Source: a virus (Duplodnaviria; Caudoviricetes). Taken from it: a stretch of 59,803 nucleotides of DNA. The position numbers and the translations under genes are program-made. This document shows, in pieces, positions 8,193 through 56,329 of this stretch. Location of the stretch: the IMG/VR virus record IMGVR_UViG_3300008261_000020, positions 1 to 59,803 of that record. One strand, written 5' to 3'. Within the stretch, counting starts at the first letter, position 1. Every line of letters begins with the position of its first letter. Below the pieces are notes generated by a model. That model searched no databases and had not been told where the DNA came from. It saw only the letters and a program-made list of their open reading frames with translations.

Positions 8193-11100
8193 TTACCTGT
8201 ACATATCCTCTTTTATTTGCTTCTTTATTTTTTCTTGTTCTCTGTTTATTTCTTTCTTCATTTGTTCAACGTCATACAATGAACCACCGGGACCATACAA
8301 GTCGTTATACATATCAGGGAAGTACTTCTTCATATCTTCTTTACTCATCGAAGACCCTTTGCCACCCGTACCCTTTGTCTTCTCCAAGTCCTTGTACAAC
8401 TCAGCGTTTACTATTTTATGTATGTCTTTATATAACGGAACCATACCAATGTTACCAAAGAACTCAAGAGGAACACGGATGTTCTTTTCTTTTTCGCTAC
8501 GCTCAATCGCCTCTTCTTCCTCCTTTGGTTTCTCAAGTGCCTTCTTTGCAATAAGGTAGGCTGTCTTTGCAGAAGGAGAGAACGGACCCATCATATTAAA
8601 TAGTATCTGTTCAGGCTTTCCTTGCTTGTCTATTGGCAGTACACTGTATTGTATTGCGTCCTTGTATGGGTCGTACTCTCCCTCTCTTAAAAAGTCAAGG
8701 TACTCTTGGTTCACTTTCTCAACACCATAGTTTACAAGCGTCTTAGTAACGTTACCAAAGTCACGACCAAGAATCATTGACGAGAACGCAGACGCAAGTG
8801 CCTGACCAATTTTTTGGTAGAAGCTTTTCTCATCCTCTTCTTCATCATCCACAAACAATCCTGTCATAGCCGAGCCTAATACATTTACCAATAGTGTATA
8901 CAACACCATCCTTGCGGTAACACCTCCAAGCAATGCAACTCCCTGCTTCCTTGATATTTGCCCGCCCTTCATTGCTGCCATTATACCTGTTCTTGCAGTA
9001 ACATATTCATAAATCAAGAAGGTTGTCATAAAGTTATTGAACCTATTAAATGCCCTAATGAATCCACTCTGATTAGGTTTTGATGTGCCCTTTAAAATAC
9101 CCATAAAGGCATTGTCTGTTGCACCCATTAGAACACTCTTCTTGTCTGCAACCAACGTAGCCTTTTCAAGATTTTCTTTGTTTTCTGACATGTAGGCTTC
9201 ATCATTGTTTGCAATCTTATCAAAGTCAGGATTGGTTCCTGTAAGATTCTTGAACTCATTTGTAAACGCACCAAACCAAACGGGACGCATTGTTATTTTA
9301 TCAGGAGTGGATATGAGTGCGTCTGCTGTAAGCTCAACAGCATTTGTATACTTGCCCAATGAAAGGTTATATATCTGCTGTATCTTATTGGCAACATCAT
9401 TCTTGGCTCTGCTTCCTTTTACACCAACAGCATCACTCATCACAGATGTGTCAATCATTTTACCACTAAGCGTGTGATTGGGGAACAACCTATTCATCTG
9501 CTTACTGTTCAAATTAAATACAGCCTTTGCAGCATCAGAAGAAAATATAAACTTCTTCATTGATGCACCTGTAGAAAAATCTTTTGGTGCAACTATCGTA
9601 GCAAATGCTACGTTTGATGTAAGCTCAGACGCAAACCTTGGGATACTTGCAAGCACAGCTCTATATCCTTGCTTAGAAATATAATCAACAACATCGTCAG
9701 CAAGTGATGTTGACATGAATGCATTCGTCAATAAATTTTCTGTAGCCTCATCAAACGCACCTGATATTGCATTGAAAATATCACGCTGTTTTTTATCAGC
9801 CTTTCTCTCCTTTAACAACCTTGATGTTTCGTTGATTGTTTTTCTTGCTGTACGTATTGGCTCGGTAAGATAGTAGTCCATTAACACAAACTTAGCACCA
9901 CGCTGCGTAGCTGCAAACACATCAAAGTTTAATGGGGTAGCCTTACCTGTACGAGTAAGCAATGACTTCGCTCTTGTAGATGGTCTTAATGTATTTGAAT
10001 AAGTATTTAAAGATGACGCTCCTGTTATATCTTCCTGCTGACTGTCGTCAAGCAATGCATAGTGGTGAACGTAATCTGTCAGTGGAGAAATTTTATCACC
10101 ACGTATAATAGCCGATGTGTAAACAGCCTTATCACGCATGCTATCATTGATGTCTGATATTTCTTTTATTGCAGACTTCTCTGCTGAGTTAAATGAGTCA
10201 TATAGTTTCTTTGCATCTATCTGACCATCTGCATTTGAATACTTCTCTTGTATCTCCCTTAGCATCTCAACGTCTCTTTCAGTAAAGCTTGACTTCCCAT
10301 TTTCAATGTGGTCAATTGTAGACTCAAGAAACTTAGAAGCCGGGTTAACCTGTTTGTTATTGGGGTTGGACTCAAACTCACGCTGAAGCAGATATGCCAT
10401 CATCTTATACTTCGACATTGTCGTCTTGTTAGCGTTCATGTTAAAAGACTTAGCAACCTTTAACTCCGCCTCCTTTAACCTCTTGGCTATTTGCTTTTCT
10501 GAAAATGCAAACTTGGCTTGTGCCTCTGCAGCTTTTTCAAACAATGAATTAAATATTTCCTTTGTATTAAAGTTGCCAAACACTTGGTCAATATAATACA
10601 ATGGGTTCCTCCTTATGAGTTCAGAAAAGTTTTTATTCTTTGTAAACAGCGACTTAAATCTTGCATAAAGATTTGAAAAAGGGATAGGCTTTGCATTTGA
10701 TATAGCCTTGTCAAGAACAGCACTGTTGTCAAGTGCGGTTATTCTTTCGTAAAGCAATTGAGCGTAATGAGGTATGTACCCATTATTTATGTTGTCAATT
10801 ACTTTTAAAAGATTGTTCAGCTCTCTAACGCTTAACCTGTTTAAGTTCTTACTATTTAAAAGTTTAGAAAGATTCTTTGCCAAGTCACGCTCGTCTTTTG
10901 TTGGCAAATCATCAGCGTTTATCTTTGATGAATTTATTTGTTTTATAACATTTTGTTTCTCCTCTTCAGTGGACTCTTGCTCAGGCTCAACCTCCTCTGA
11001 TACTTCTTCCTGATACTTCATCATCACGTCAGCTTCCTTCTCGTCAATCTCTTTATTGTCGAGCATTGACTTTACTGTTTTGGAATAATCCAACTTGCCA

Positions 11101-14100
11101 TCTTCTTCTACTTTATTTTGAGAAGACTTCATTCTGTCAGCCAACTCAAGGACCTGTGACTGTTCAGCATTTATTTCGTCAAGAATTTCATTTACATCCT
11201 TTATTACCTTCTGCTTTTCCTCAAGGGTCAACACTGCCTTTCTCTCACCAAACATGTTAACCAACTCGGAATACCTGTCGAAATATTTCTGAGGTATTAG
11301 TGTTGGATTAATTGAAAATAATTTCTGCAATGGGACCATTAAGCCATCTGCTATACCAATTTTAGATACTATGTTTTTCTTTGCAGACTTTAGCTTTGAA
11401 TTGACCTCACTTATTTTTTGTGCGTATTCAGCATCATTAAATACCTTGGTCATGTAGTCTACAAACTTAGACACAGATACTTCGTTTAACATATTAACCT
11501 TTCCAAACCTTGCAATAATATTTGCGGCTTGCTTAACGGTTATCTTTCCTGTGTCAGCCAATGCTTTTATCTCTTTAGCTAAATCATTAGCGGCATCCTT
11601 TGACAGCTTCCTTATCTCACTTATTATTTTTAACTTATCTTTCCTTGATACATTGGTTATGTCTTTTAACGCTCCAAGAATCCTACCGATAGATGGTGCA
11701 CGTCTTGGTGATACTCCCATCTTACCACGAGCCTCACGCTCCATTATCTTTTTCTGTGCGTCATTTGCGTTTTGGTATACCTCAGAGTTCCTGACCAACG
11801 TATCTACGTTGCTTGTCATCCTACTCTGCTCAGTACCTCTTGCTGTCTGACGTTGTATCATCTCATCAACCTTGCCCATCAGCTCGTTGAAACCATCTTG
11901 AATAGGAGCAATGTTTAGTATATCCTTAACTGAATCCTGAGAGATATTATTATCAGCAGCCACTTTCCTTATTGCATCACGCAACTTCATACCACCCTTG
12001 ACTAATACTTTTGCAGCTTTTATTACTACTTGAACTGTGCTTAATGGTATAGCAAGAAGAGCTTCATTGGCTCCACTCCTTAATCTTTTTGTAATAGCTT
12101 TATCAACACTATCAAGAAAGTTAAAGACAACATTCATATTGTCTTCATTAGATACATCTAAATCTAAGACTTCGTCAATGCTTTCCCCTCCGGCAATTCC
12201 TCTACCCAATTCGGTATCGACTGTTCCCAAAATTCCCTCGGAGCGTCCCCGTAAATTAGATAAAGAGCTAATCCTTTGTTTAGCACGTAATTCCGCTCCT
12301 TGGCGAATTGAGTCACTAATGATTTGAGTTGTAATTCCTCCTGACTTTCCCCACTCAGGGTCTCCACTTCTGTTTCTTGCAATGAGTTCTGTTGCTCTTT
12401 CATAAGCTGATTTTTTGCTTGTTCTTGATTCGGATATATAATCGAATATTTCTTTTTTCTTTGATTCTGTTCTGTTCTTGTCGTTAATACCAACACGCTG
12501 TGCTTCCCAAGTTATTGACTGCATTTCCCTTGGTAGTATTCCTGCTATTTCAGAAGCCCTTATGTAAGCTTCTTTTACCAATGCGTATGTCGGCTCAAGA
12601 CTTCCGTTAAATAAACCAAATCCGCCTGCATCATTTGCTGATATTGGAGAATTCAAAGCTGCAGATAAAGCGTGAGTGTCTGCAGTTACGTAAGGAGTTT
12701 TTGAATTAGGGTCTACAATATTATTATAAAAGTTTCTAACCTTATTGCCGTTGCCTAAGTTTTCGTTTATGTTATTTACATCACCGTTTCTAAAAATATT
12801 TATTGCTTTTGATATTTCAGCTTCTGAGTTCCATCTTACAGGTGTTTTATCAAATCCAATAAATGCACCTGTTGGGTCTGTCATTGCAACTTTTGGAGAA
12901 TTTAATGCTTGGTCAAATGCTCTTAATATAGCAGCCTGAGTAGCTGTACTTTGACCTAAATTATTTAATTCATTTATAGAGACCTCTCCATACTGTTTAA
13001 ACAAATCAGCTATATCATTTGCATACCCGCTTGGCTCACCACCTCTTGAGTTATACTCAACAGCTTTGTCAACAATATCTTGAGTCAACTTAGTGTCAGC
13101 ATATTTGGTCATTACCTCTATGGTTCTTTCAGCAACAGAAACATTATTAAACCAATCATTCTGAGGACTAAGTGCAGCTATTATACCACCAACCTGTTCT
13201 ACAGATATATTATATTTATTAGCAATTGCATTAGCCATTCTATTAGCACCGACATACCACTCTTTACTATTCTTTATAAATTCAGGAGTAAGTGTATCAT
13301 ACAATGCTAATAGATTCTGAGACATTACGTCAGTAAAATCAGACAATATTCTTTTAGCAACCTTGTTTATATCCTTTTTAATCTTTTGCTTTTGCTCTGT
13401 TGCCTGCTTGCTTGCTCCTTTTATATTTCTATACTCTTCCCTAAGTGAAGATATTTTCTGATACAATGACTTGTTTATATACGGCAGTTTAAATTCTATT
13501 TTCTGACCGTCTTTATTATAACTGATTTGACCTGATGCAAGATTTGCAGCCACACTTACAACACGACTATTAGGTGCGTGTTCATTATCAAAAATATCAT
13601 TAGCACTATAGTCTTCCTTATATCCTTTTTCTGTTTTTACTGTTGGATTATTCTGTCCTTTAACAACATTCTCTTGTCCTGTTAGTTTAACACCAACACC
13701 TTCCGCTTGAAGGTCAGAAACTATACCTTCTTTAGACCTGTTAATTGCTTCAGTTAATTTATCTTCAGGTATATTATTATCTTTTGCTACTTTTCTTATA
13801 GCATCCCGAAGAATCATTCCTCCTTTTACTAAAGCTCTTACTGCTTTAATAGCTATTTGTATTGTAGATAGTGGTATGGCAAGTAATGCATCATTAGCTC
13901 CACTACGAAGTCTTCTGCCTATTGCAGCATCCCCTCTGTCGAGTGCGTTTAATACCCTCTGCATATTATCCTCATTCTCTACATCCAAGTCAAGCATTGC
14001 GTCTATCGAAGCAATATCCTCTGCAGTCGGTCCTTCTTCAGGTACTGCAGGTGCCGTAGGTTTAGGCTTCTTGGCAGCAGCTTTCTCAGCAGCCTTGGCT

Positions 14101-17100
14101 TTCTTTGCAGCTTCCTTTTCAGCAGCCTTGGCTAATATTTTAGCTTCTCTGTCAAATTCTTTTTTTCTTATTTTATTTGCCTTTTCAATTAGTGCCTTCT
14201 GAGCCTCTGCCTTTGTATCAAAGTCTTGCCTACCAACCTCAGTTCCATTTTCATCTTCTGCGTTCCAACTAACGACACCATCCTCGTCAACAATTTTAAC
14301 CAAGTTACCAATTGAATTTCCATCCTCGTCATTCAATGAAACCGATAGCCTTGATATGTATTCGTACTCCCTTCCATTGTCGCCCGTCTTGAAATCCGTT
14401 TCATAATCTACAGCATTGTCCCTTGTAAACTTATCATGGCTTACACTCTCTTCAGTTATTGGCACGTACTGCTCCTCCTCAACAACAGGAGCAGCCTCTA
14501 CAACAGGAGCAGCCTCAACGACAGGAGCTTTGTATATTGTAAATTGGTCAAAGTCTTCTCCTCCACCCGGAGCTTCTTGATAATATTTAAAATCTATATT
14601 AGCTAACTTGTCTTTATATTGTCCTAATATTTGATTGACTACTTTATCTAAGTTTGATATTTTATCAAGTGGGATAGAATCACTAAGGTCAACTATGTCT
14701 CCCTGCTTAGTATACACAAACAATTCAAATCTCCTATTACCATTCCTTCTTCTTGGTATAGAACGAACAGCATCCTTTATTTTTTCTTTTATCTTATCTG
14801 AAATCTTAACAGGTCCTTGAGCTACAGCAGATGCAACCTCCTGTGTCTTTGAAGACACTGTTGGAGCTATACCAAATATAGTGTCAACATCTTTAACCAA
14901 TTGTGACTCTACATTATTTCGCTTATCACTATTGTATGCATTAATTAATTCTGTAATATTTGCAAATTGTGATAATGGGCTGTTCGGGTCTAACAGTGAT
15001 TTGATATTTGTCAAGGCATCTTGTTTGCTTGCCTGTTCTTCATTTGCCCTGCTGCCAAAAGTAAATCCAAAAAAGTCATTTAACTTTTTAATTGCCTTAT
15101 TTGCCTTTGCAGTTGATGTTCTTTTCTCGCTTGTTGTTTGACCAACAGGAGCTTGAGAATAAGCTGTAGTAAAGTTCTCTACTAAATCATTTAATTGAGT
15201 AGCCATCCCTTCGGGAACTTCCTGTGTCTTTGAAGACACTACGGGATTATCTTTGAGGTCTGCTTCCAAATCAGCAATGTCTTGCTTTAATGATTCTATT
15301 AAATCTTGTGATGACTTCTTTGCTTCTTCGGGACTTCTTCCTCTTTCAATATCATTTTTTTCAGACTCTCCTGACTCAACCCACTTAATCAAATCTTTAC
15401 TACTTTGTAATGCCGCAAGCCTTGGGTCTTGGTCATATAGTTCTTTGTATTGGTATCCATATTTTTCAGATGAAGCAGTCTCATCGTAAATAATATATTC
15501 CAAATTGTCCTTAGCCCTTATCTTATCTCTTCTTTGCCTAACAGTCTCATCAAAATCTTCTAAGGTTTTCTTGGCTTTATTATATTCTTCTATTGCAGCT
15601 TCAACATCATCAGCACTACCTATTCTTTTTTGTGCATAAAATACTTCATCAGAAAGTTTACTTCTTTGGTAATCCTCTTCTATTTTTTTATTTCTTAACT
15701 CCTCTCTTTCTTTTATCTTTACTTCTTCTTCCGGGGTGATGACTTCTTCGACACCTTCTGTGGTAGTGACTTGAGGTTCTGCTTGGGGTTTTCCTTCCTC
15801 CACTTCTTCGCTAACTCCGGCTCCTGACTGTACAGATACTTCACCTGCTGCTTGCTTTTGAATGGCATTTTCTTGTATGGTTTTAATTTGTGAACGAATA
15901 GCAGCAGCCTTATCCTTGCCTGACTGCGTTTTATTATTTTCAAATTTCTTTAACTCTTTCTCTAATTCAACAAGAGTATTTAAACTTTCTTCATCAATAT
16001 CGGGATTAGCTTCTTTAACTTCTTTCCTTATTTGATTAGTTACAACTACATCTTGTATTTTATTATTATAACCCTTGTTGTCATTCTTTATTTCAATATT
16101 CATTTTTGAAATATCATCAGGTGTGCCCACCCTTAATATCTCCTCAATGTCTGCTTCAGTTCTATTCTCTCCATTAACCTTATACACAGGCTTTTTCATA
16201 ACCTCTGACACAATATCAATAGCTGCTGATGGTGTCTCTGATATACCTTCAAGAGCAATCTCAGACACGTCTAATGGTTGACCTGCAACTATTCTACCTG
16301 CTGCCTCTCCAACTGAACCGCCTACTCCTTCTATACCACCACCTGCAAGACCTGCCTTTACTTTTGACGCAGCAGTATTTCCAAGCATTTTTGCACCAAC
16401 CTTTCCCGCAAGCCTACCTGTCATGGCATCTATTATACCAATAGTAGCACCTCTTGCTGCTGACTTAACTCTTATTTCAGATAATGCTTTATCATCCTCA
16501 AGTATTTTCTTTACGTTTTCTTCTGTAAAGTCAAGTCCTTTTTCGTTTAATTTATCCTGCAATAGTTCTGAAAATGTAAGACCTGTCTCAAGTGTTGTTC
16601 CGGCAGCAGCCATTGCATAAGGTGCAGATGCTATAGCTGCAGGTGCCGCTCCTGCTCCTCCAAACAGTGCTCCTCCTGCTGCAGCTCCACCAACAACCGT
16701 ACCTGCAGATGCTAATGATGTTGGGTTTACCATTGCAGTATATGAACTCATAATAAGTTCAGGTATGGCTCCGGGATTTTTAACCAATCCTTTAAGCACA
16801 CCAAATATACCTTTACCTTCCTCCTCATAAATCTTTTGATAATTCATCATCTCATCAGAAGGTCCTGCGTTTTGCATTGCCTTAGATGCTGTGACAAATT
16901 TTTGTATTGTTTCAGGAGATGCATACTTGCCACTAACCATTAATTGATTTGATGGAGTAACAACAGCACCTTGCCTTCTTCCTGCGTCTACCGCCCTACC
17001 CATATCATCAATAAAGTCTCCAACTCCAAATGGTGATACCAAGTCCATTACTTCTAATGCAGCACCAAATTTTCCCGTAAAGAATGGCTTTTCTTTTGGA

Positions 17101-17435
17101 GTCTCGTCTATTGGGGCAACAGGCTTAGTAGGTTCGGGTGATACCGATGGACCAACTGCCGAAGGAAATTCCGTAAAATCTTGTACTTTTTCTGCGGGTA
17201 GTGGACCGACTTTTTTTTTAACAGGCTCTTCTACTGCAGGTGCTGCTTGAGACAGACCCATCAGTGCCTTATAATCTTCAATAGGTTTCTTGTATCCGTT
17301 CTGTACAAATAGATTGTATGAGTCATCTAAAGCCTGCGTGTTTGAGGCAATTAGTTTTTTGAATTCATCTATCGACTTGTTGTACCCGTTCTGTACAAAA
17401 AGATTATATGAGTCTTGTATCGCCTGTTCGTTCAT
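8193..17435 (-). CDS. Giant internal virion/ejection protein (3080 aa), multidomain
   Basis: Position at the end of the virion module; Gly/Ala-rich hydrophobic segments; internal repeats; embedded HhH-like domain. Confidence 0.7.
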   Translation of the reverse strand: MNEQAIQDSYNLFVQNGYNKSIDEFKKLIASNTQALDDSYNLFVQNGYKKPIEDYKALMGLSQAAPAVEEPVKKKVGPLPAEKVQDFTEFPSAVGPSVSPEPTKPVAPIDETPKEKPFFTGKFGAALEVMDLVSPFGVGDFIDDMGRAVDAGRRQGAVVTPSNQLMVSGKYASPETIQKFVTASKAMQNAGPSDEMMNYQKIYEEEGKGIFGVLKGLVKNPGAIPELIMSSYTAMVNPTSLASAGTVVGGAAAGGALFGGAGAAPAAIASAPYAMAAAGTTLETGLTFSELLQDKLNEKGLDFTEENVKKILEDDKALSEIRVKSAARGATIGIIDAMTGRLAGKVGAKMLGNTAASKVKAGLAGGGIEGVGGSVGEAAGRIVAGQPLDVSEIALEGISETPSAAIDIVSEVMKKPVYKVNGENRTEADIEEILRVGTPDDISKMNIEIKNDNKGYNNKIQDVVVTNQIRKEVKEANPDIDEESLNTLVELEKELKKFENNKTQSGKDKAAAIRSQIKTIQENAIQKQAAGEVSVQSGAGVSEEVEEGKPQAEPQVTTTEGVEEVITPEEEVKIKEREELRNKKIEEDYQRSKLSDEVFYAQKRIGSADDVEAAIEEYNKAKKTLEDFDETVRQRRDKIRAKDNLEYIIYDETASSEKYGYQYKELYDQDPRLAALQSSKDLIKWVESGESEKNDIERGRSPEEAKKSSQDLIESLKQDIADLEADLKDNPVVSSKTQEVPEGMATQLNDLVENFTTAYSQAPVGQTTSEKRTSTAKANKAIKKLNDFFGFTFGSRANEEQASKQDALTNIKSLLDPNSPLSQFANITELINAYNSDKRNNVESQLVKDVDTIFGIAPTVSSKTQEVASAVAQGPVKISDKIKEKIKDAVRSIPRRRNGNRRFELFVYTKQGDIVDLSDSIPLDKISNLDKVVNQILGQYKDKLANIDFKYYQEAPGGGEDFDQFTIYKAPVVEAAPVVEAAPVVEEEQYVPITEESVSHDKFTRDNAVDYETDFKTGDNGREYEYISRLSVSLNDEDGNSIGNLVKIVDEDGVVSWNAEDENGTEVGRQDFDTKAEAQKALIEKANKIRKKEFDREAKILAKAAEKEAAKKAKAAEKAAAKKPKPTAPAVPEEGPTAEDIASIDAMLDLDVENEDNMQRVLNALDRGDAAIGRRLRSGANDALLAIPLSTIQIAIKAVRALVKGGMILRDAIRKVAKDNNIPEDKLTEAINRSKEGIVSDLQAEGVGVKLTGQENVVKGQNNPTVKTEKGYKEDYSANDIFDNEHAPNSRVVSVAANLASGQISYNKDGQKIEFKLPYINKSLYQKISSLREEYRNIKGASKQATEQKQKIKKDINKVAKRILSDFTDVMSQNLLALYDTLTPEFIKNSKEWYVGANRMANAIANKYNISVEQVGGIIAALSPQNDWFNNVSVAERTIEVMTKYADTKLTQDIVDKAVEYNSRGGEPSGYANDIADLFKQYGEVSINELNNLGQSTATQAAILRAFDQALNSPKVAMTDPTGAFIGFDKTPVRWNSEAEISKAINIFRNGDVNNINENLGNGNKVRNFYNNIVDPNSKTPYVTADTHALSAALNSPISANDAGGFGLFNGSLEPTYALVKEAYIRASEIAGILPREMQSITWEAQRVGINDKNRTESKKKEIFDYISESRTSKKSAYERATELIARNRSGDPEWGKSGGITTQIISDSIRQGAELRAKQRISSLSNLRGRSEGILGTVDTELGRGIAGGESIDEVLDLDVSNEDNMNVVFNFLDSVDKAITKRLRSGANEALLAIPLSTVQVVIKAAKVLVKGGMKLRDAIRKVAADNNISQDSVKDILNIAPIQDGFNELMGKVDEMIQRQTARGTEQSRMTSNVDTLVRNSEVYQNANDAQKKIMEREARGKMGVSPRRAPSIGRILGALKDITNVSRKDKLKIISEIRKLSKDAANDLAKEIKALADTGKITVKQAANIIARFGKVNMLNEVSVSKFVDYMTKVFNDAEYAQKISEVNSKLKSAKKNIVSKIGIADGLMVPLQKLFSINPTLIPQKYFDRYSELVNMFGERKAVLTLEEKQKVIKDVNEILDEINAEQSQVLELADRMKSSQNKVEEDGKLDYSKTVKSMLDNKEIDEKEADVMMKYQEEVSEEVEPEQESTEEEKQNVIKQINSSKINADDLPTKDERDLAKNLSKLLNSKNLNRLSVRELNNLLKVIDNINNGYIPHYAQLLYERITALDNSAVLDKAISNAKPIPFSNLYARFKSLFTKNKNFSELIRRNPLYYIDQVFGNFNTKEIFNSLFEKAAEAQAKFAFSEKQIAKRLKEAELKVAKSFNMNANKTTMSKYKMMAYLLQREFESNPNNKQVNPASKFLESTIDHIENGKSSFTERDVEMLREIQEKYSNADGQIDAKKLYDSFNSAEKSAIKEISDINDSMRDKAVYTSAIIRGDKISPLTDYVHHYALLDDSQQEDITGASSLNTYSNTLRPSTRAKSLLTRTGKATPLNFDVFAATQRGAKFVLMDYYLTEPIRTARKTINETSRLLKERKADKKQRDIFNAISGAFDEATENLLTNAFMSTSLADDVVDYISKQGYRAVLASIPRFASELTSNVAFATIVAPKDFSTGASMKKFIFSSDAAKAVFNLNSKQMNRLFPNHTLSGKMIDTSVMSDAVGVKGSRAKNDVANKIQQIYNLSLGKYTNAVELTADALISTPDKITMRPVWFGAFTNEFKNLTGTNPDFDKIANNDEAYMSENKENLEKATLVADKKSVLMGATDNAFMGILKGTSKPNQSGFIRAFNRFNNFMTTFLIYEYVTARTGIMAAMKGGQISRKQGVALLGGVTARMVLYTLLVNVLGSAMTGLFVDDEEEDEKSFYQKIGQALASAFSSMILGRDFGNVTKTLVNYGVEKVNQEYLDFLREGEYDPYKDAIQYSVLPIDKQGKPEQILFNMMGPFSPSAKTAYLIAKKALEKPKEEEEAIERSEKEKNIRVPLEFFGNIGMVPLYKDIHKIVNAELYKDLEKTKGTGGKGSSMSKEDMKKYFPDMYNDLYGPGGSLYDVEQMKKEINREQEKIKKQIKEDMYR
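14843..14858. repeat. Dispersed palindrome GTGTCTTTGAAGACAC
   Basis: Exact motif in the giant gene (VSSKT). Confidence 0.9.
15224..15239. repeat. Dispersed palindrome GTGTCTTTGAAGACAC
   Basis: Exact motif in the giant gene (VSSKT). Confidence 0.9.
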
Positions 17436-29435: not shown

Positions 29436-29476
29436 AAAAAATAAGGAGAGTGTCTTTAAAGACACTCCCCTTTTTT
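29436..29476 (-). terminator. Terminator after the capsid gene, built on the palindrome GTGTCTTTAAAGACAC (29450-29465)
   Basis: Extended hairpin flanked by A and T runs. Confidence 0.7.
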
Positions 29477-51263: not shown

Positions 51264-51464
51264 CTAAAATCTCATTTTCTCTTTAAGGTCTTCCATCATC
51301 TCGGCTTTTTGCATACCAAGAGATACTGCCTCTGACATCATCTGAATCTTCTCAGCCTTCTTCAAATCCTTTTTAATCTGAGCAGCCTGTTGGATTCCTG
51401 TCATACTATTTGGTCTGTTGTTTATAAGACGACCATTCTTAATTGTCAAGTCATTGTATTGCAT
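51264..51464 (-). CDS. Hypothetical protein
   Basis: 66-aa ORF, first gene of the minus arm. Confidence 0.65.
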   Translation of the reverse strand: MQYNDLTIKNGRLINNRPNSMTGIQQAAQIKKDLKKAEKIQMMSEAVSLGMQKAEMMEDLKEKMRF

Positions 51465-51519
51465 ACTATATAGTTTGGTATAAAGGTAGGAAAAATTTTA
51501 TTCAGATAATAGTAGTGTG

Positions 51520-51840
51520 GGGGCTATATACCGGTTCTGCGTGGCGGGACCCGAACCGAAAGTGACTTTTTTTTGAGGGGGTGGGGGTCGCTTTTCGTCC
51601 GACCCTCAGCAAATTTTTGGCTTTTTGCCGTGGCAATTGTCCCCGTCCCCGTTCCCCATCCCGTATTCGCCCCTCCTTTGTTCGTTCTACGTCCCCCGTC
51701 CCGTTCAAGGTCCCACGTAATTCGCCCCCGTTCCCCCGTCTGTAGTGTCTTTGAAGACACAAAGCAAAGAGAGTAAGGAGGCTGACCCCGTCCCTTTTCC
51801 CCCGTGCTTAAACTTTCCGCCCAATTTCCCCACGCTGAAA
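51520..51840. repeat. GC-rich, C-skewed noncoding region with CCCCGT repeats; palindrome copy at 51745-51760
   Basis: Many CCCCGT/CCCGT units between the divergent arms. Confidence 0.6.
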
Positions 51841-51902
51841 CCCTTTGTTTATCAATACTTTACAAAAATCTTTCCCTATTCAAAAAAATATTTGTAAAAA
51901 AA

Positions 51903-51934
51903 TTTGGTAATGTCAAAAAGTTAGACGAGATTTG
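51903..51934 (+). promoter_or_regulatory. Putative early promoter
   Basis: TTTG-N20-GAGATTTG, one mismatch to TAnnTTTG, upstream of the first plus-strand gene. Confidence 0.55.
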
Positions 51935-51971
51935 TCAAATAATTAATCAATCACTATTAAAATTTTAAACA

Positions 51972-52634
51972 ATGAGCACACAATTACTTGCAATCGAGAC
52001 AGCCTTCCTTCGTCAGTCAGAAGTCGCATCAGCACTGAACTTGAACGAAATCAGGAGCCTTCAAAGGACAATTCAGAACGGACAGAAGAAGAAGTTCGAG
52101 CAGTCTCTTACTCTGAGCCAACACGTAAACAATGCCTTCGAGTGGTTCAAATCTGCTGAGGGTCAAAGGAAGTTAAACGAGGAGGGCATTGCTTGGACCT
52201 CTGAGCAATTCGCTCAAAAAGTATTTGGGTTTCAAAAATCTTATTTCTACAAATTGGTGAAGGTGGCGAACCTTGAGTCTGAGGTGGTTGAAACGTTCAA
52301 AGCGAAATGCGATGAACTTGAGGGTCAAGGATCTGAACCAATTCGCTCAGTGGAAAACCTCCTCAAATTTGCAAGGGCTTCTGAGGAGACGAACAACGAG
52401 GGGGAAAGTGAAGAGGCTGAGGTGGAAACCCGCACTCAAACAATTTTCACTTTGACCTTCAAACATCCCGATGGTAACATCTCGGTGCGAATAGATGAGG
52501 CGGGGCAGATGAAGACAACCAATAACACTACAGAGTTATTGAGTGCAATTAAATTTCTTCAGCACGCTATTGTTGACGCGGTGGGTCGTGAGAATATCGA
52601 GGGATGTCGTGAGTGCGGTGGTATTTACGAATAG
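51972..52634 (+). CDS. Hypothetical early protein, possible HTH
   Basis: FAQKVFGFQKSYFYKLVK helix-turn-helix-like segment. Confidence 0.7.
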   Translation: MSTQLLAIETAFLRQSEVASALNLNEIRSLQRTIQNGQKKKFEQSLTLSQHVNNAFEWFKSAEGQRKLNEEGIAWTSEQFAQKVFGFQKSYFYKLVKVANLESEVVETFKAKCDELEGQGSEPIRSVENLLKFARASEETNNEGESEEAEVETRTQTIFTLTFKHPDGNISVRIDEAGQMKTTNNTTELLSAIKFLQHAIVDAVGRENIEGCRECGGIYE

Positions 52635-52639
52635 TCAAA

Positions 52640-52663
52640 GGTGGTGTCTTCAAAGACACCGCC
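52640..52663. repeat. Hairpin containing the palindrome GTGTCTTCAAAGACAC (52644-52659)
   Basis: GGTGGTGTCTT-CA-AAGACACCGCC directly 5' of hammerhead 1. Confidence 0.9.
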
Positions 52664-52714
52664 TCCGTCCGAGAGTGATTACTCTCGCTGATGAGTCCAA
52701 TAGGACGAAACGGA
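52664..52714 (+). ncRNA. Hammerhead ribozyme, type III (HH1)
   Basis: UCCG-UC^; stem I CGAGAGU-GAUU-ACUCUCG; CUGAUGA; stem II GUCC-AAUA-GGAC; GAAA-CGGA; predicted cut after 52669. Confidence 0.95.
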
Positions 52715-52734
52715 AACCAAAAAAATCTAATCAA

Positions 52735-53622
52735 ATGGAATTTAAAATGCATGGAGCAGGACCAAACAGATGGAATGACATCGTTTCACGTGGTGTGGTT
52801 CAAGGATACCACGACAAGCCTCACCCGATTGATATTTCGGGCGGAGCGAAAGCCTCAGACATTGCAAACCTCAAGAAAGCACAAAGGGGTAACCTTATTG
52901 AGTCTTTCGGTGACTATCGTTCAAGGTTTACCATCGGGTTTGAGGTGGAGAAAAACTCCCTTCATCGTGGAGCGGTGAGAGAGTACGAGCTACTTTGTGG
53001 GTTTGAGCGTGATGGGTCTTGCGGTTACGAAGCGGTTACCCACGTGTTACCCCTTGTTCCTAACTCTCAGTGGAGAACTGCCGTATTCGATATGATGTTC
53101 AAGGCTGAGAAAATTATTTCAGACAATTATAGCCCTTCAAATTCTCAGTGCGGTGGTCACTCAAACATCGGGGTTGAGGGGTTGACGGGTGATGAACTGA
53201 GGGTCCTTATTCGCTCTTACTCGGGCATTGTTATGGCACTCTTTCGCAATAGGTTGAAAAACTCTTTCTGCCGTCACAATTTACGTATGCAGGGGGGCAC
53301 TGAGACGGGCATTTATAACGGGTGGCACTCAAAGTATCAGATGTGTTTGGTAAAGAGCAACATCGTTGAATTTAGGGTGGTGGCTAAGTTTGAATCTGTT
53401 AAGCAGATGATGAGAAGGTACGAATTGTTCTATGAATTGGTGGACTATTCGTTGAACGTGAAGGGGTCGCATAGTGCCTTCCTTAAGCGTATCACCCCCA
53501 TCATCACCTCGATGTACAACGGGGACACTGACAAGGTGAACAAGGTATTAGGGTACGCTAAGCACTTTCAAAAGTTCATCAACGACGGGTCAATCCATCC
53601 CGACATCCGACAATATCTTTAG
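52735..53622 (+). CDS. Amidoligase (COOH-NH2 ligase)-like protein
   Basis: FTIGFEVE, ERDGS, GYEAVT, CGGHSN, VEFR; start moved to the ATG after a TAATCAA leader. Confidence 0.7.
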   Translation: MEFKMHGAGPNRWNDIVSRGVVQGYHDKPHPIDISGGAKASDIANLKKAQRGNLIESFGDYRSRFTIGFEVEKNSLHRGAVREYELLCGFERDGSCGYEAVTHVLPLVPNSQWRTAVFDMMFKAEKIISDNYSPSNSQCGGHSNIGVEGLTGDELRVLIRSYSGIVMALFRNRLKNSFCRHNLRMQGGTETGIYNGWHSKYQMCLVKSNIVEFRVVAKFESVKQMMRRYELFYELVDYSLNVKGSHSAFLKRITPIITSMYNGDTDKVNKVLGYAKHFQKFINDGSIHPDIRQYL

Positions 53623-53630
53623 AGTGCGAA

Positions 53631-53681
53631 GGGGGTGTCCTTCGGGTGCGTGTCTTTAAAGACACCGCCCCGACACTCCCC
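53631..53681. repeat. Long GC hairpin capped by the palindrome GTGTCTTTAAAGACAC (53650-53665)
   Basis: GGGGGTGTC...GACACTCCC outer stem; directly 5' of hammerhead 2. Confidence 0.85.
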
Positions 53682-53730
53682 CCGTCTCAGCGTGTGTACG
53701 CTGACTGATGAGCTCAAAAGAGCGAAACGG
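53682..53730 (+). ncRNA. Hammerhead ribozyme, type III (HH2)
   Basis: CCG-UC^; stem I UCAGCGU-GUGU-ACGCUGA; CUGAUGA; stem II GCUC-AAAA-GAGC; GAAA-CGG; predicted cut after 53686. Confidence 0.95.
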
Positions 53731-53789
53731 AAATAGCCACGCGAAGCGTGTCTATCCCCCATCGGAATCACACTTTAAACCAAACCACT

Positions 53790-53876
53790 ATGTTGTTAGC
53801 AATCTTTCTCTTGTCTGTTATCGTATCATTTTTTTTAACCAACGAAATCTTACCTAAAAAAAGCAAACTACTATGA
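53790..53876 (+). CDS. Small membrane peptide (28 aa)
   Basis: MLLAIFLLSVIVSFFLTNEILPKKSKLL; ATGA overlap with the next ORF. Confidence 0.45.
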   Translation: MLLAIFLLSVIVSFFLTNEILPKKSKLL

Positions 53877-54028
53877 AACAATCAAATTCACTGAACGTCC
53901 TTTACTTAGTCATCATCCTTTGTATGTTCATCTTTGGGCTCACCTTGACCTCTTGCGGTACGCAAGGGTACGGGTGCAAGGGGAACCAATCTTGGAACAC
54001 TATGGTAAAGCGAATCAACCGAGGTTAA
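53873..54028 (+). CDS. Small lipoprotein (51 aa)
   Basis: MKQ + hydrophobic helix + LTSC lipobox; stop codon lies in HH3 stem I. Confidence 0.65.
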   Translation: MKQSNSLNVLYLVIILCMFIFGLTLTSCGTQGYGCKGNQSWNTMVKRINRG

Positions 54029-54077
54029 CTGACGAGTCTTGAGTAGACGAATCGGGGGCATTGCCCCCGACTTAACC
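54023..54077 (+). ncRNA. Hammerhead ribozyme, type I core variant (HH3)
   Basis: Stem I GGUUAA/UUAACC; CUGACGA; stem II GUCU-UGAGU-AGAC; GAA-U; stem III CGGGGGC/GCCCCCG; A-C^; predicted cut after 54071. Confidence 0.85.
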
Positions 54078-54090
54078 AAACCAAATTACA

Positions 54091-54288
54091 ATGACGCTAA
54101 AAAAATCGTACGCTTTTGACTATGACAAATCACTTGTTGAGTTCTTGAATCAGAAGGGAATCAAGACCATCACCGGTGACGCTGACATCACGCTGATTGA
54201 ACTTGAGGTATTGGGCGGGTACAACGATACCCCGTTCATTGACCTCATCCTTGAGTTCAGTGCGTGGCTGAGGCACAATCAAGGTTAA
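54091..54288 (+). CDS. Hypothetical protein flanked by HH3 and HH4
   Basis: 65-aa ORF; stop codon lies in HH4 stem I. Confidence 0.7.
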   Translation: MTLKKSYAFDYDKSLVEFLNQKGIKTITGDADITLIELEVLGGYNDTPFIDLILEFSAWLRHNQG

Positions 54289-54334
54289 CTGATGAGTCTT
54301 GAATAGACGAATCCCCCTTCGGGGGGACTTAACC
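54283..54334 (+). ncRNA. Hammerhead ribozyme, type I core variant (HH4)
   Basis: Stem I GGUUAA/UUAACC; CUGAUGA; stem II GUCU-UGAAU-AGAC; GAA-U; stem III CCCCC-UUCG-GGGGG; A-C^; predicted cut after 54328. Confidence 0.85.
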
Positions 54335-54347
54335 AAATCAAATCACA

Positions 54348-54503
54348 ATGGAATCAAGCTACCTATTCAAAATCTATTACGACAAAAGGTTCGTCTGTCT
54401 GATGGTTGCCCACACTAAATGGGAAGCAGTTGACAGAGCGTACTTTAAGTACCTCTATTTGAATCCGAATCTGAATCGTAGCAGGTTCAGTGCCAAAAAA
54501 TAA
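54348..54503 (+). CDS. Hypothetical protein (MESSYLFKIYYD...)
   Basis: 51-aa ORF read by hand, with an AAATCAAATCACA leader. Confidence 0.65.
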   Translation: MESSYLFKIYYDKRFVCLMVAHTKWEAVDRAYFKYLYLNPNLNRSRFSAKK

Positions 54504-54504
54504 A

Positions 54505-54536
54505 TTTGGCGATGTCGAATTAATGTCGTACCTTTG
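54505..54536 (+). promoter_or_regulatory. Bacteroidota promoter
   Basis: TTTG-N20-TACCTTTG, full consensus. Confidence 0.8.
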
Positions 54537-54564
54537 TTTAAATTTAGTTCATTAATCGGGTTCT

Positions 54565-54580
54565 GTGTCTTCAAAGACAC
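54565..54580. repeat. Dispersed palindrome GTGTCTTCAAAGACAC
   Basis: Lies in the leader between the promoter and the GATase start. Confidence 0.9.
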
Positions 54581-54603
54581 TACCCACAAATCAAATCAAG
54601 CCT

Positions 54604-55707
54604 ATGTGCGTAATCATTATCAAACAGAAGGGGAAACTGCTACCCAAGGAGGTCGCCAAGACCTCGGGCAGAATCAATCCACACGGGTTGGGAATTATAT
54701 GGTTGGATACCTTTGAGGTTGCCTACCATAAGTCGTCTGAGTACAAGGTATTGGACACAGAGCGTCCGTTCATTGCACACTTTCGTTATGCCACCATTGG
54801 TGCGGTAAACAAGGAGAATACTCATCCGTTCAGATGCGGTGCGAATCGCAACGAATGGCTGATGATGAACGGGACCATCGCTAAGTTGGGTGATGCCAAG
54901 AAGAGTGACTCAAGGGTTCTTGCTGAATCGTTGGGTGACATACCACGTCACACGTGGAAGAAGGAGTTGGAGAAGTACGATAGCAGGTTCGTGACAATCA
55001 ACACACGTAACCGCACGTATCAGATATACAACAGAGAGTTGTGGACACAGAGGGATGGGATATGGTATAGCAAGAACAATGTACTTGAGGATAATTTGGT
55101 TGCCGTGTATGGCACACTGAAGAAGGGGTATAGCAATTACAATCGGTTCCTAACCTCATCCAAGCACGTTGGCAAGGGACACACCGAGGACAAGTACCCG
55201 CTTATCATCAAGGGTTTACCCTACCTTCTTGAGATGAAAGGTATCGGGCACAATGTTGAGGTTGACGTGTTCAAGGTGAGTGATGTTGTGGTGAAGGAGT
55301 TGGACGCACTTGAAGGTCATCCCTTTTGGTATTGCAGAAAGCAGATACCTATCAAGATGAAAGATGGGAGGGTTCTTACGTGTTGGATATACTTTAATCT
55401 TGCCGAGAAGTACAAGGGCGAAGAGGTCCACGAGACATACACTCAGACGTTTAGCTTCATAAGTGAAGCTAAGAGTAAGAAGTGGTGGGAAGAGGATGCT
55501 GAGGAAGTATTGGAGGCTGAGCGTATAATTGGTAAGCAGTTATACCTTGACGAGTTCATTGACGATGATGAGTTCGATGTGAAGAATGAGAAGCCCGTCT
55601 GTATAAATTGTTTTCACGACCTTGAGTTCGATGGGTTCAGTAACTTTCATTGCAGTGGGTGTAATGATTGGTTCTCAGAGAACGAGGTTCTAAAGTATAG
55701 TGCATAG
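54604..55707 (+). CDS. Class II glutamine amidotransferase fused to a gamma-glutamylcyclotransferase (AIG2-like) domain and a C-terminal zinc finger
   Basis: N-terminal MC, NPHGLG, HFRYAT, NTHPF, NG, SDS; VAVYGTLK, LDALEGHP; CINC...CSGC. Confidence 0.85.
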   Translation: MCVIIIKQKGKLLPKEVAKTSGRINPHGLGIIWLDTFEVAYHKSSEYKVLDTERPFIAHFRYATIGAVNKENTHPFRCGANRNEWLMMNGTIAKLGDAKKSDSRVLAESLGDIPRHTWKKELEKYDSRFVTINTRNRTYQIYNRELWTQRDGIWYSKNNVLEDNLVAVYGTLKKGYSNYNRFLTSSKHVGKGHTEDKYPLIIKGLPYLLEMKGIGHNVEVDVFKVSDVVVKELDALEGHPFWYCRKQIPIKMKDGRVLTCWIYFNLAEKYKGEEVHETYTQTFSFISEAKSKKWWEEDAEEVLEAERIIGKQLYLDEFIDDDEFDVKNEKPVCINCFHDLEFDGFSNFHCSGCNDWFSENEVLKYSA

Positions 55708-55720
55708 TGATTAGGTTTAC

Positions 55721-55802
55721 CTCCGAGCGTTTCCACGCTTGGAGATTTACACGGGGTGCAGAATGGTCTGTCAAGTGAAGGGTTCGATTCCCTCCCCGTG
55801 TG
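55721..55802 (+). ncRNA. Hairpin plus tRNA-elbow-like element A
   Basis: Closing stem UACACGGGG/CCCCGUGUG, CAGA-AUGG-UCUG arm, T-arm AGGG-UUCGAUU-CCCU; no anticodon arm. Confidence 0.6.
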
Positions 55803-55821
55803 CTCATCAAATTCAAATCAA

Positions 55822-56052
55822 ATGTCAAAAGCAAATGTTCTAACAATTCTCGTTGCATTATTCCCATCTTATGCTTCATTGTATTGCGACCAAGTTTCAT
55901 CAGGAATTTTATTGGTACTAAGTACTATAATTTTTGGTGTGGTAACGGGTGCTAATGAAGGAGAAGAAAAAATGAAAGACAAGATTCAAATGGGATGGAT
56001 ACTCCATATTGTAGGGGTGTTCATTGTCATCGGTGTAAAAAGTATTCAGTAA
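55822..56052 (+). CDS. Small membrane protein
   Basis: Two to three hydrophobic helices; start moved to MSKAN. Confidence 0.65.
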   Translation: MSKANVLTILVALFPSYASLYCDQVSSGILLVLSTIIFGVVTGANEGEEKMKDKIQMGWILHIVGVFIVIGVKSIQ

Positions 56053-56061
56053 TTTTAATAA

Positions 56062-56085
56062 GGCGGTGTCTTCAAAGACACTGCC
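56062..56085. repeat. Hairpin containing the palindrome GTGTCTTCAAAGACAC (56066-56081)
   Basis: GGCGGTGTCTT-CA-AAGACACTGCC, intergenic. Confidence 0.9.
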
Positions 56086-56110
56086 CATTTCTAAACCTAA
56101 ACGTAAACGT

Positions 56111-56281
56111 ATGTTATCAGAACAAGAAAGACTAATGTTATTGCAAGGCACAATTGATAGAATCCTCTACCTATCCGACAATGATAGGGAGGAGTTCCTT
56201 AACTACTTAGAGACACTCTATACCCTCTATCCTATACCAAAGAAGATAAGATATGGTGCTGAAATTTTCAATGAGGAGTAA
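56111..56281 (+). CDS. Hypothetical protein
   Basis: Start moved to MLSEQ. Confidence 0.6.
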   Translation: MLSEQERLMLLQGTIDRILYLSDNDREEFLNYLETLYTLYPIPKKIRYGAEIFNEE

Positions 56282-56329
56282 TCCTCAGACTGCGATGGTC
56301 TCAGTTCGGGTTCGACTCCCGATGCAGTC
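56272..56329 (+). ncRNA. Hairpin plus tRNA-elbow-like element B
   Basis: UGAGGA-GUAA-UCCUCA; closing stem GACUGC/GCAGUC; AUGGUCU; T-arm UCGGG-UUCGACU-CCCGA. Confidence 0.6.

Follow-up and report, generated by a model that had tools for sequence, protein, structure and literature searches.

Two predicted type I hammerhead ribozymes, HH3 and HH4, lie between small genes in the phage genome IMGVR_UViG_3300008261_000020. We favor, with moderate confidence, the explanation that they are compact intercistronic cassettes for processing mRNA (a form of "punctuation") in a small-gene operon of a phage that lacks Shine-Dalgarno (SD) motifs. The window that we analyzed is this entire IMG/VR record (59,803 base pairs [bp]; 38.6% GC), which is estimated to be 99% complete. 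It contains four hammerheads within positions 52665-54334, all on the + strand and each between open reading frames (ORFs).

Two hammerheads from a large phage family

The genes and ribozymes follow each other closely along the + strand. An ORF of 51 amino acids (53873-54028), which encodes a putative signal peptide and a lipobox-like LTSC motif, ends in CGA GGT TAA, and the GGT TAA is also the 5' strand of stem I of HH3 (54023-54077). HH3 is predicted to cut between 54071 and 54072, which would leave a leader of 19 nucleotides (nt) at 54072-54090: UUAACC and then 13 A/C-rich nt, with A at positions -3, -6, and -11 to -13. The next ORF (65 amino acids; 54091-54288) lies between the two ribozymes and ends in CAA GGT TAA, and here again GGT TAA is the 5' strand of stem I, this time of HH4 (54283-54334). 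HH4 is predicted to cut between 54328 and 54329, and the 19 nt at 54329-54347 would remain as a leader on the 3' product. Downstream of HH4 is an ORF of 51 amino acids (54348-54503) that is conserved in 69 related loci. This layout bears out two claims of an earlier, sequence-only reading of this DNA. GGU-UAA is the last codon plus the stop codon of both upstream ORFs (GGTTAA at 54023-54028 and 54283-54288), and 19 nt separate the predicted cut (after C54071 or C54328) from the next ATG (at 54091 or 54348).

We then examined the core and the helices. The conserved core sequence C3-U4-G5-A6-N7-G8-A9 is present as CUGACGA in HH3 (54029-54035) and as CUGAUGA in HH4 (54289-54295). In both ribozymes, G12-A13-A14 is the GAA that follows stem II (GUCU/AGAC), and the base at the cleavage site (H17, any base but G) is a C (C54071 in HH3 and C54328 in HH4). 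In HH3, stem I is GGUUAA/UUAACC, stem II has 4 bp, and stem III has 8 bp (UCGGGGGC-AUU-GCCCCCGA), followed by C54071 and then UUAACC. Stem III of HH4 is UCCCCC-UUCG-GGGGGA. The predicted folds and the alignments to our model give both ribozymes the type I topology, with stem I open and stems II and III closed by loops. Folded alone, HH3 has the hammerhead as its minimum-free-energy structure (-21.6 kcal/mol), and HH4 also folds as a hammerhead (-17.5 kcal/mol). By eye, HH3 and HH4 are identical at 29 of the first 31 positions of the ribozyme and at 17 of the 19 positions of the leader. Judging from this similarity, they are paralogous copies and their junctions are not independent, so the fact that both have 19 nt is a single observation.

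To describe the family, we ran protein-anchored searches with two larger neighboring genes, which gave 139 loci from ~60-kb phages in IMG/VR, and a regular-expression scan of these loci found 48 type I hammerheads. A covariance model (R1) was made from 30 of the 34 short, distinct hammerheads of the relatives, with the window excluded. R1 scores HH3 at 53.2 bits and HH4 at 54.5 bits (E ~1e-12), and its next-best match in the 59.8-kb window is at 15.8 bits (21 matches at E up to 10). The stems also show covariation. In an alignment of 131 members, which was fitted to the model and hence favors pairing, 99.3% of cells are paired and 414 cells are changed on both sides. None of 500 shuffles attained these values, and slid controls pair at 26-41%. 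By their model scores and predicted folds, HH3 and HH4 are members of a large family of type I hammerheads in phages.

For the statistics on layout, we used 200 distinct type I hammerheads, which came from the protein-anchored loci and from at least 120 IMG/VR loci found with the family pattern, among the matches listed. The base at the cleavage site is C in 155 members and A in 45. Stem I, which is only 6 bp long and has no bulge, is GGUUAA/UUAACC in 167 of the 200, while the other two stems vary freely. Loop II across the family is a 5-nt UNNNU. The bases that flank stem I are conserved as well: the preceding base (54022 and 54282 in the window) is A in 98% of members, and the two bases on the 3' side (54078-54079 and 54335-54336) are A in 96% and 83%. 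Given this conservation, the flanking A bases and loop II may form the tertiary contact of stem I with loop II that hammerheads need to cleave fast when Mg2+ is low. If so, the first bases of the leader would serve both the ribozyme and the initiation region.

Members often come in series. The median distance between adjacent cut sites in the family is 511 nt, and the flanking ORFs have median lengths of 84 and 74 codons. A 5.8-kb contig from a metagenome-assembled genome (MAG), L279, has nine type I hammerheads; all nine 3' strands of stem I are TTAATC, and the 5' strands are GATTAA or GGTTAA. Another locus, L182 (3.8 kb), has at least five pattern matches within ~1.7 kb.

This family appears to be a subfamily of phage hammerheads that current Rfam models do not cover, and standard annotation would overlook its members. 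At gathering thresholds, Rfam 15 has no match in the window. With relaxed thresholds, RAGATH-1-hammerhead (RF03152) scores HH3 at 19.1 bits and HH4 at 21.5 bits, both below its gathering threshold of 56.3. Similarly, none of 12 canonical or variant type I relatives (from L001, L182, L141, and L071) is matched by Rfam 15 at E up to 0.01. We also scanned IMG/VR for the exact pattern of the 5' half that HH3 and HH4 have in common, and this gave no match either. Among prokaryote genomes, 14 of 26 pattern hits are real members of the family.

Stop codons and leaders around the ribozyme

We examined where the upstream gene ends relative to the ribozyme. Of the 200 members, 174 have an upstream ORF with an ATG start and at least 40 codons, and for 14 of these 174 the assignment of the stop codon is ambiguous, because a qualifying ORF (at least 40 codons) is present in another frame too. 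The stop codon overlaps the conserved motif in 144 of the 174: it is inside the ribozyme in 93 and shares A(-1)/G1 in 51. (We counted A(-1) as part of the motif because this base is A in 98% of members.) The remaining stop codons are 1-6 nt upstream (22 of 174) or further off (8 of 174). In 57 of the 174, the stop is the TAA of stem I, as in the window. In the others, it may overlap the first G (30), be the UGA of the CUGAUGA core (23), directly abut the ribozyme (21, at offset -2), or lie in loop II (8). The overlap is also found in the subset from the protein searches, which was not selected for GGTTAA (31 of 38).

All three upstream frames are used (87:65:22), and the frame determines which ribozyme-encoded tail the protein ends with: G, VN, or RLTDEx. 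Where the ORF enters the core or loop II, the ending is VN (in 23 cases) or RLTDEx (in 8); examples are at L163:4142, L182:2495, and L203:910. The stop inside the ribozyme, which the sequence-only reading described for HH3 and HH4, is thus a family-wide layout, but GGU-UAA is just one of several arrangements. Overall, the overlap suggests that genes are packed tightly against a motif with stops in all three frames, rather than that the position of the stop is tuned. The type I topology places the cut 3' of the whole ribozyme, so the upstream ORF would keep its stop codon after cleavage.

Another explanation for this layout, which was put forward in the sequence-only reading, is that translation gates the ribozyme. 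A ribosome that finishes the upstream ORF would keep the 5' strand of stem I and part of the core in its mRNA channel and so block folding, and cutting would occur only when upstream translation pauses or stops. Processing, and expression of the next gene, would then depend on upstream translation. We consider both parts of this proposal doubtful. Besides the 144 stops that overlap the motif and the 22 more that are within 6 nt, there are 31 cases (at offsets +8 and +18) in which translation has to pass stem I and reach the core or loop II, and the frame that reads deepest into the ribozyme is the rarest of the three. The ribosome's footprint reaches ~12-15 nt beyond the A site on the 3' side, and occlusion of stem I follows from this. 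A terminating ribosome must cover stem I and part of the core, so upstream translation can hardly avoid interfering to some extent with the folding of the ribozyme. But the stops are spread over ~25 nt and three frames and follow a rule of "first available stop," as packing alone predicts. A tuned switch would need a fixed stop position, which is not seen, and GGTTAA is retained in the 21 cases where the ORF has its own TAA just before it (offset -2). A dependence of cleavage on translation would follow from the physical size of the ribosome.

On the other side of the cut, 193 members have a downstream ORF, and in 146 of these the distance from the cut to the ATG is 18-24 nt, with modes at 22 and 23 nt. 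The spacing of exactly 19 nt, which the sequence-only reading had expected to be uniform, is found in only 23 of the 193 members, and in the closest relative (L001) the distances are 18 and 19 nt. So, a short and unstructured leader recurs across the family, but its exact length is not conserved. Folding predictions leave the 3' products of cleavage unstructured (-0.8 kcal/mol for HH3 and -0.9 kcal/mol for HH4). Leaders across the family have almost no G, and A is frequent at -12 (0.89), -11 (0.78), -13 (0.74), -3 (0.69), and -6 (0.61). In Flavobacterium johnsoniae, A-3, A-6, A-12, and A-13 promote initiation, according to the text of PMC6847099.

We also considered whether the 19-nt leader could be an ordinary intergenic spacer. 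As a general statement, this is rejected by 29 orthologous junctions that have no hammerhead. Their spacers run from -1 to over 100 nt: from the stop to the ATG, there are -1 to 7 nt in 14 junctions, 12-20 nt in 7, and at least 47 nt in 8.

The window's genes lack SD motifs: SD-like 4-mers precede 1 of 71 genes, compared to 7.5 expected. DNA matches to named phages are short (71-73% identity over ~129 bp), and 58 of the 60 matching records are Flavobacterium phages; none of the matches in these 60 records spans the hammerheads. Of the 14 prokaryote loci with family members, six are labeled as Bacteroidota; these include two copies in a complete Paraflavitalea chromosome. Because SD motifs are lacking, the short matches are to Flavobacterium phages, and family members are found in Bacteroidota-labeled genomes, we assign this ~60-kb lake-water phage, on indirect evidence, to a host that probably uses SD-independent initiation of the Bacteroidota type. 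The idea that the leader is suited to such initiation is partly upheld. The initiation adenines recur and SD motifs are scarce, but cleavage is dispensable for the gene after HH4 (see below).

If HH3 and HH4 are punctuation cassettes, as we propose, then the ribozymes would cut after C54071 and C54328. The upstream fragment would keep the whole ribozyme, because the topology is type I, along with its stop codon, and its 3' end would be compactly folded and carry a 2',3'-cyclic phosphate. On the downstream fragment, 5'-OH-UUAACC would be followed by an initiation region of 13 nt that is A-rich and unstructured. The motif A-GGUUAA-CUGAUGA-...U[G/A]A has a stop in each frame, and upstream ORFs would end at the first one met. 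The 19 nt in the window would be at the short end of the family's range of 18-24 nt, and the adenines after stem I would double as the determinants at -13 to -11. Cleavage in vivo with these end groups may in turn affect the stability or the translation of the mRNAs.

Core variation and turnover at orthologous junctions

Several observations weigh against the punctuation explanation. First, both HH3 and HH4 deviate from the hammerhead core at one pair, a feature that the sequence-only reading did not mention: the expected A15.1-U16.1 is replaced by U15.1-A16.1 (CGAAUC...GAC). Across the family, this pair is A-U in 197 of the 200 members and U-A in 3, namely HH3, HH4, and L141:10379, which is in a contig from a distantly related phage. 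At both junctions, the orthologues in L001 keep the canonical A-U (the orthologue of HH4 is at L001:3667-3735). By this pair, we class HH3 and HH4 as core variants and not as canonical hammerheads. According to the text of PMC3088659, one natural U15.1-A16.1 hammerhead was assayed and had "low, but detectable" self-cleavage, which was attributed to the loss of the contact between A15.1 and G5, and mutants at 15.1/16.1 were at least 10-fold slower. The swap in HH3 and HH4 is a compensated double transversion and the remaining core is intact, so cleavage is probably slow or partial, and the ribozymes attenuated rather than dead.

Second, at the orthologous junctions in the 69 related loci, the gene after HH4 has no upstream hammerhead in 43 of 45 distinct cases. 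This shows that cleavage is not needed to express this gene. Third, if a longer stretch of RNA is folded, the minimum-free-energy structure pairs the 5' strand of stem I with the upstream coding sequence. Also, even in the uncut RNA, little pairing is predicted for the 13 nt that follow stem I (0.9 unpaired), so cutting may add little to the ribosome's access. Fourth, the other 8 of the 14 prokaryote loci carry labels from outside the Bacteroidota, and these are mostly small MAG contigs. Finally, no public sequencing run contained the window's sequence as RNA, and three lake-water metatranscriptomes from the same study have almost none of its sequence words.

The first two of these observations raise the question of whether HH3 and HH4 have decayed. 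The swap would have killed catalysis, HH3 and HH4 would persist as intergenic hairpins or neutral remnants, and the uncut polycistronic RNA would be translated. This would fit with the retention of A15.1-U16.1 in 197 of 200 members, the low activity reported for the swap (in the text of PMC3088659), and the 43 of 45 orthologous junctions that work without a hammerhead. Nevertheless, we consider decay quite unlikely. All of the other core positions are intact and the three helices are fully paired in both copies. As a compensated double transversion, the swap retains the pair, and it is found in both HH3 and HH4, whose stem III sequences differ, and again in the distant contig (L141:10379). By eye, stem II of HH3 differs from its L001 counterpart by two compensatory pair exchanges. 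And the one natural U15.1-A16.1 example that was assayed did cleave (PMC3088659, main text).

We then compared the junctions to those of the closest relative. L001 is 88% identical to the window in the neighboring gamma-glutamyl cyclotransferase gene, and its orthologue of the 51-amino-acid ORF at 53873-54028 (80% identity) likewise ends with GGT TAA inside a hammerhead. The 65-amino-acid gene between HH3 and HH4 is absent from L001, and in L081 and L084 its homologues (40-42% identity) directly precede hammerheads. This distribution fits with shuffling of cassettes. HH3 and HH4 have the same stem II, but their L001 orthologues do not share one. Stem III of HH4 is identical to a stem III in L141, and also to that of the L001 orthologue of HH3 except for the flipped pair. 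These patterns suggest conversion or exchange among hammerhead cassettes. From the comparison of junctions, the ribozyme is an accessory element that is gained and lost, and its benefit would be modest or conditional.

Such turnover could also mean that the cassette is selfish or recombinational. A unit of ~70 nt (A-GGTTAA...TTAACC plus the A-rich leader) would spread between junctions, its ends would provide homology for gene shuffling, and its links to translation signals would be side effects of insertion at harmless sites. This would be compatible with a role in punctuation, and taken as the explanation we consider it unlikely. Several of the observations above point this way: the variable presence of hammerheads at orthologous junctions, the 65-amino-acid gene that is missing in L001 and sits beside hammerheads in L081 and L084, the stem II of HH3 and HH4 that L001 does not share (which suggests gene conversion), the exact stem III of HH4 in the otherwise distant phage L141, and up to nine copies in 5.8 kb (L279). 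On the other hand, the strong purifying selection on the catalytic core and the compensatory changes in the helices point to selection on the fold of the ribozyme itself and not just on a repeat. Also, we saw no mobility machinery or target duplication, and neither was searched for systematically.

A more elaborate proposal, which we consider very unlikely, is that the segments between hammerheads become circular. The UUAACC at the start of a segment would pair again with the GGUUAA at its own 3' end, and the segment (such as 54072-54328) would be sealed into a circular, exonuclease-resistant, single-gene mRNA with internal SD-independent initiation, with upstream ribosomes gating the cutting. 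The nick could be sealed by the reverse reaction of the ribozyme or by an RtcB-type ligase, and the near-invariant stem I would exist for re-pairing into a nicked hammerhead. However, the 3' strand of stem I is fully matched to the 5' strand of the next hammerhead in 54 of 67 adjacent pairs (81%), compared to 74% for random pairs across contigs. This gives circularization no support beyond the family-wide conservation of stem I.

Neighboring features, related systems, and implications

The other two hammerheads in the window are type III and lie upstream of HH3 on the + strand. HH1 (~52665-52713) was found by the regular-expression scan and its coordinates were counted by hand; it has a canonical core and a predicted cut after C52669. 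HH2 (~53682-53730) was found by the same kind of scan and by Rfam's Hammerhead_3 model (40.7 bits, with a gathering threshold of 48.5), and its predicted cut is after C53686. Neither one overlaps an ORF, although these are only two cases.

A 16-nt palindrome, GTGTCTTYAAAGACAC, occurs at 13 sites in the window, compared to 0.1 expected (3658, 14843, 15224, 29450, 36514, 46661, 50260, 51745, 52644, 53650, 54565, 56066, and 59396). Two of the copies directly precede HH1 and HH2. At 29450, a run of T comes after the palindrome on the - strand, and this copy resembles a terminator. At L001:1506 and L037:2806, the palindrome's hairpin is stem III of a type I hammerhead. We did not find a link between the palindrome and promoters of the form TAHHTTTG, as this element is within 70 nt at only 2 of the 13 sites.

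Downstream of the last small gene, TACCTTTG at 54529-54536 matches the -7 consensus of Bacteroidota (TAHHTTTG, as given in the text of PMC6847099). It is ~70 nt upstream of the gamma-glutamyl cyclotransferase gene and could mark an internal promoter downstream of the genes that the hammerheads punctuate. A scan of 51300-56300 for sigma-70 promoters and terminators gave results at or below the shuffle expectation. The cyclotransferase gene (54604-55707) encodes 367 amino acids, with the gamma-glutamyl cyclotransferase region at residues 162-279 and an N-terminal part that is weakly similar to glutamine amidotransferase; the protein is conserved in 128 related loci. It is also the sole match in PHROGs, which had no family for the small ORFs that flank the hammerheads. 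Elsewhere in the window, a single ORF of ~3,080 amino acids (8193-17435 on the - strand) takes up 15% of the genome and contains two copies of the palindrome. We found no tRNA genes in the window.

Parts of this picture are already known. As described in the text of PMC3088659 (Perreault et al. 2011), clustered hammerheads in phages and prophages likewise occur several at a time around single small genes. For those that flank single genes, the proposed role is to divide long transcripts into gene-length mRNAs, and in vitro, cleavage was seen for three such clusters. So the clusters, the proposal that they process polycistronic RNA, and one natural U15.1-A16.1 variant were known from that paper. 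The same text places a hammerhead of a halovirus 13 nt before a start codon. It does not describe stop codons inside the ribozyme, a rule of 18-24 nt from cut to AUG, or a link to genes without SD motifs, and its supplementary figures may show more. More broadly, a word search of the main text of open-access papers found no description of a systematic overlap between the ends of ORFs and the ribozyme, a narrow distance from cut to AUG, or a link to SD-less genes.

At the level of structure, Rfam's type I hammerhead (RF00163), its clan (CL00010), and RF03152 have the same core (CUGANGA...GAA...H) and the same three-helix junction with an open stem I. A type I hammerhead from eukaryotic RNA viruses, described in 2026 (PMC13725137), is closer in its link to translation. 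According to the text, it has a long helix III and lies just upstream of a viral ORF, and its cleavage is tied to the translation of that ORF. But initiation there is cap-independent and the hosts of the element are eukaryotic RNA viruses, whereas HH3 and HH4 are intercistronic elements of a DNA phage and are known from sequence alone. The same text states that the role of bacterial and phage hammerheads is still elusive in most cases.

Synthetic biology offers another comparison. In the engineered insulator RiboJ, a self-cleaving ribozyme is placed before the ribosome-binding region, so that the mRNA has a defined 5' end whatever sequence lies upstream, and the ribozyme stays on the downstream RNA. 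In contrast, HH3 and HH4 would stay on the upstream fragment, with only 6 nt of stem I left on the leader.

The family adds a regular layout to what was known. The ribozyme starts on the upstream stop codon and is predicted to cut ~20 nt before the AUG, the leader contains the determinants of initiation in Bacteroidota, and the whole is present or absent at orthologous junctions. Part of the core of a catalytic RNA is routinely translated as the C-termini of proteins. This leads to a testable hypothesis: these hammerheads may be natural ribozyme "insulators" that would give SD-less genes a defined 5' end. The natural alleles, which are predicted to be active, weak (U15.1-A16.1), or absent, would be ready-made controls.

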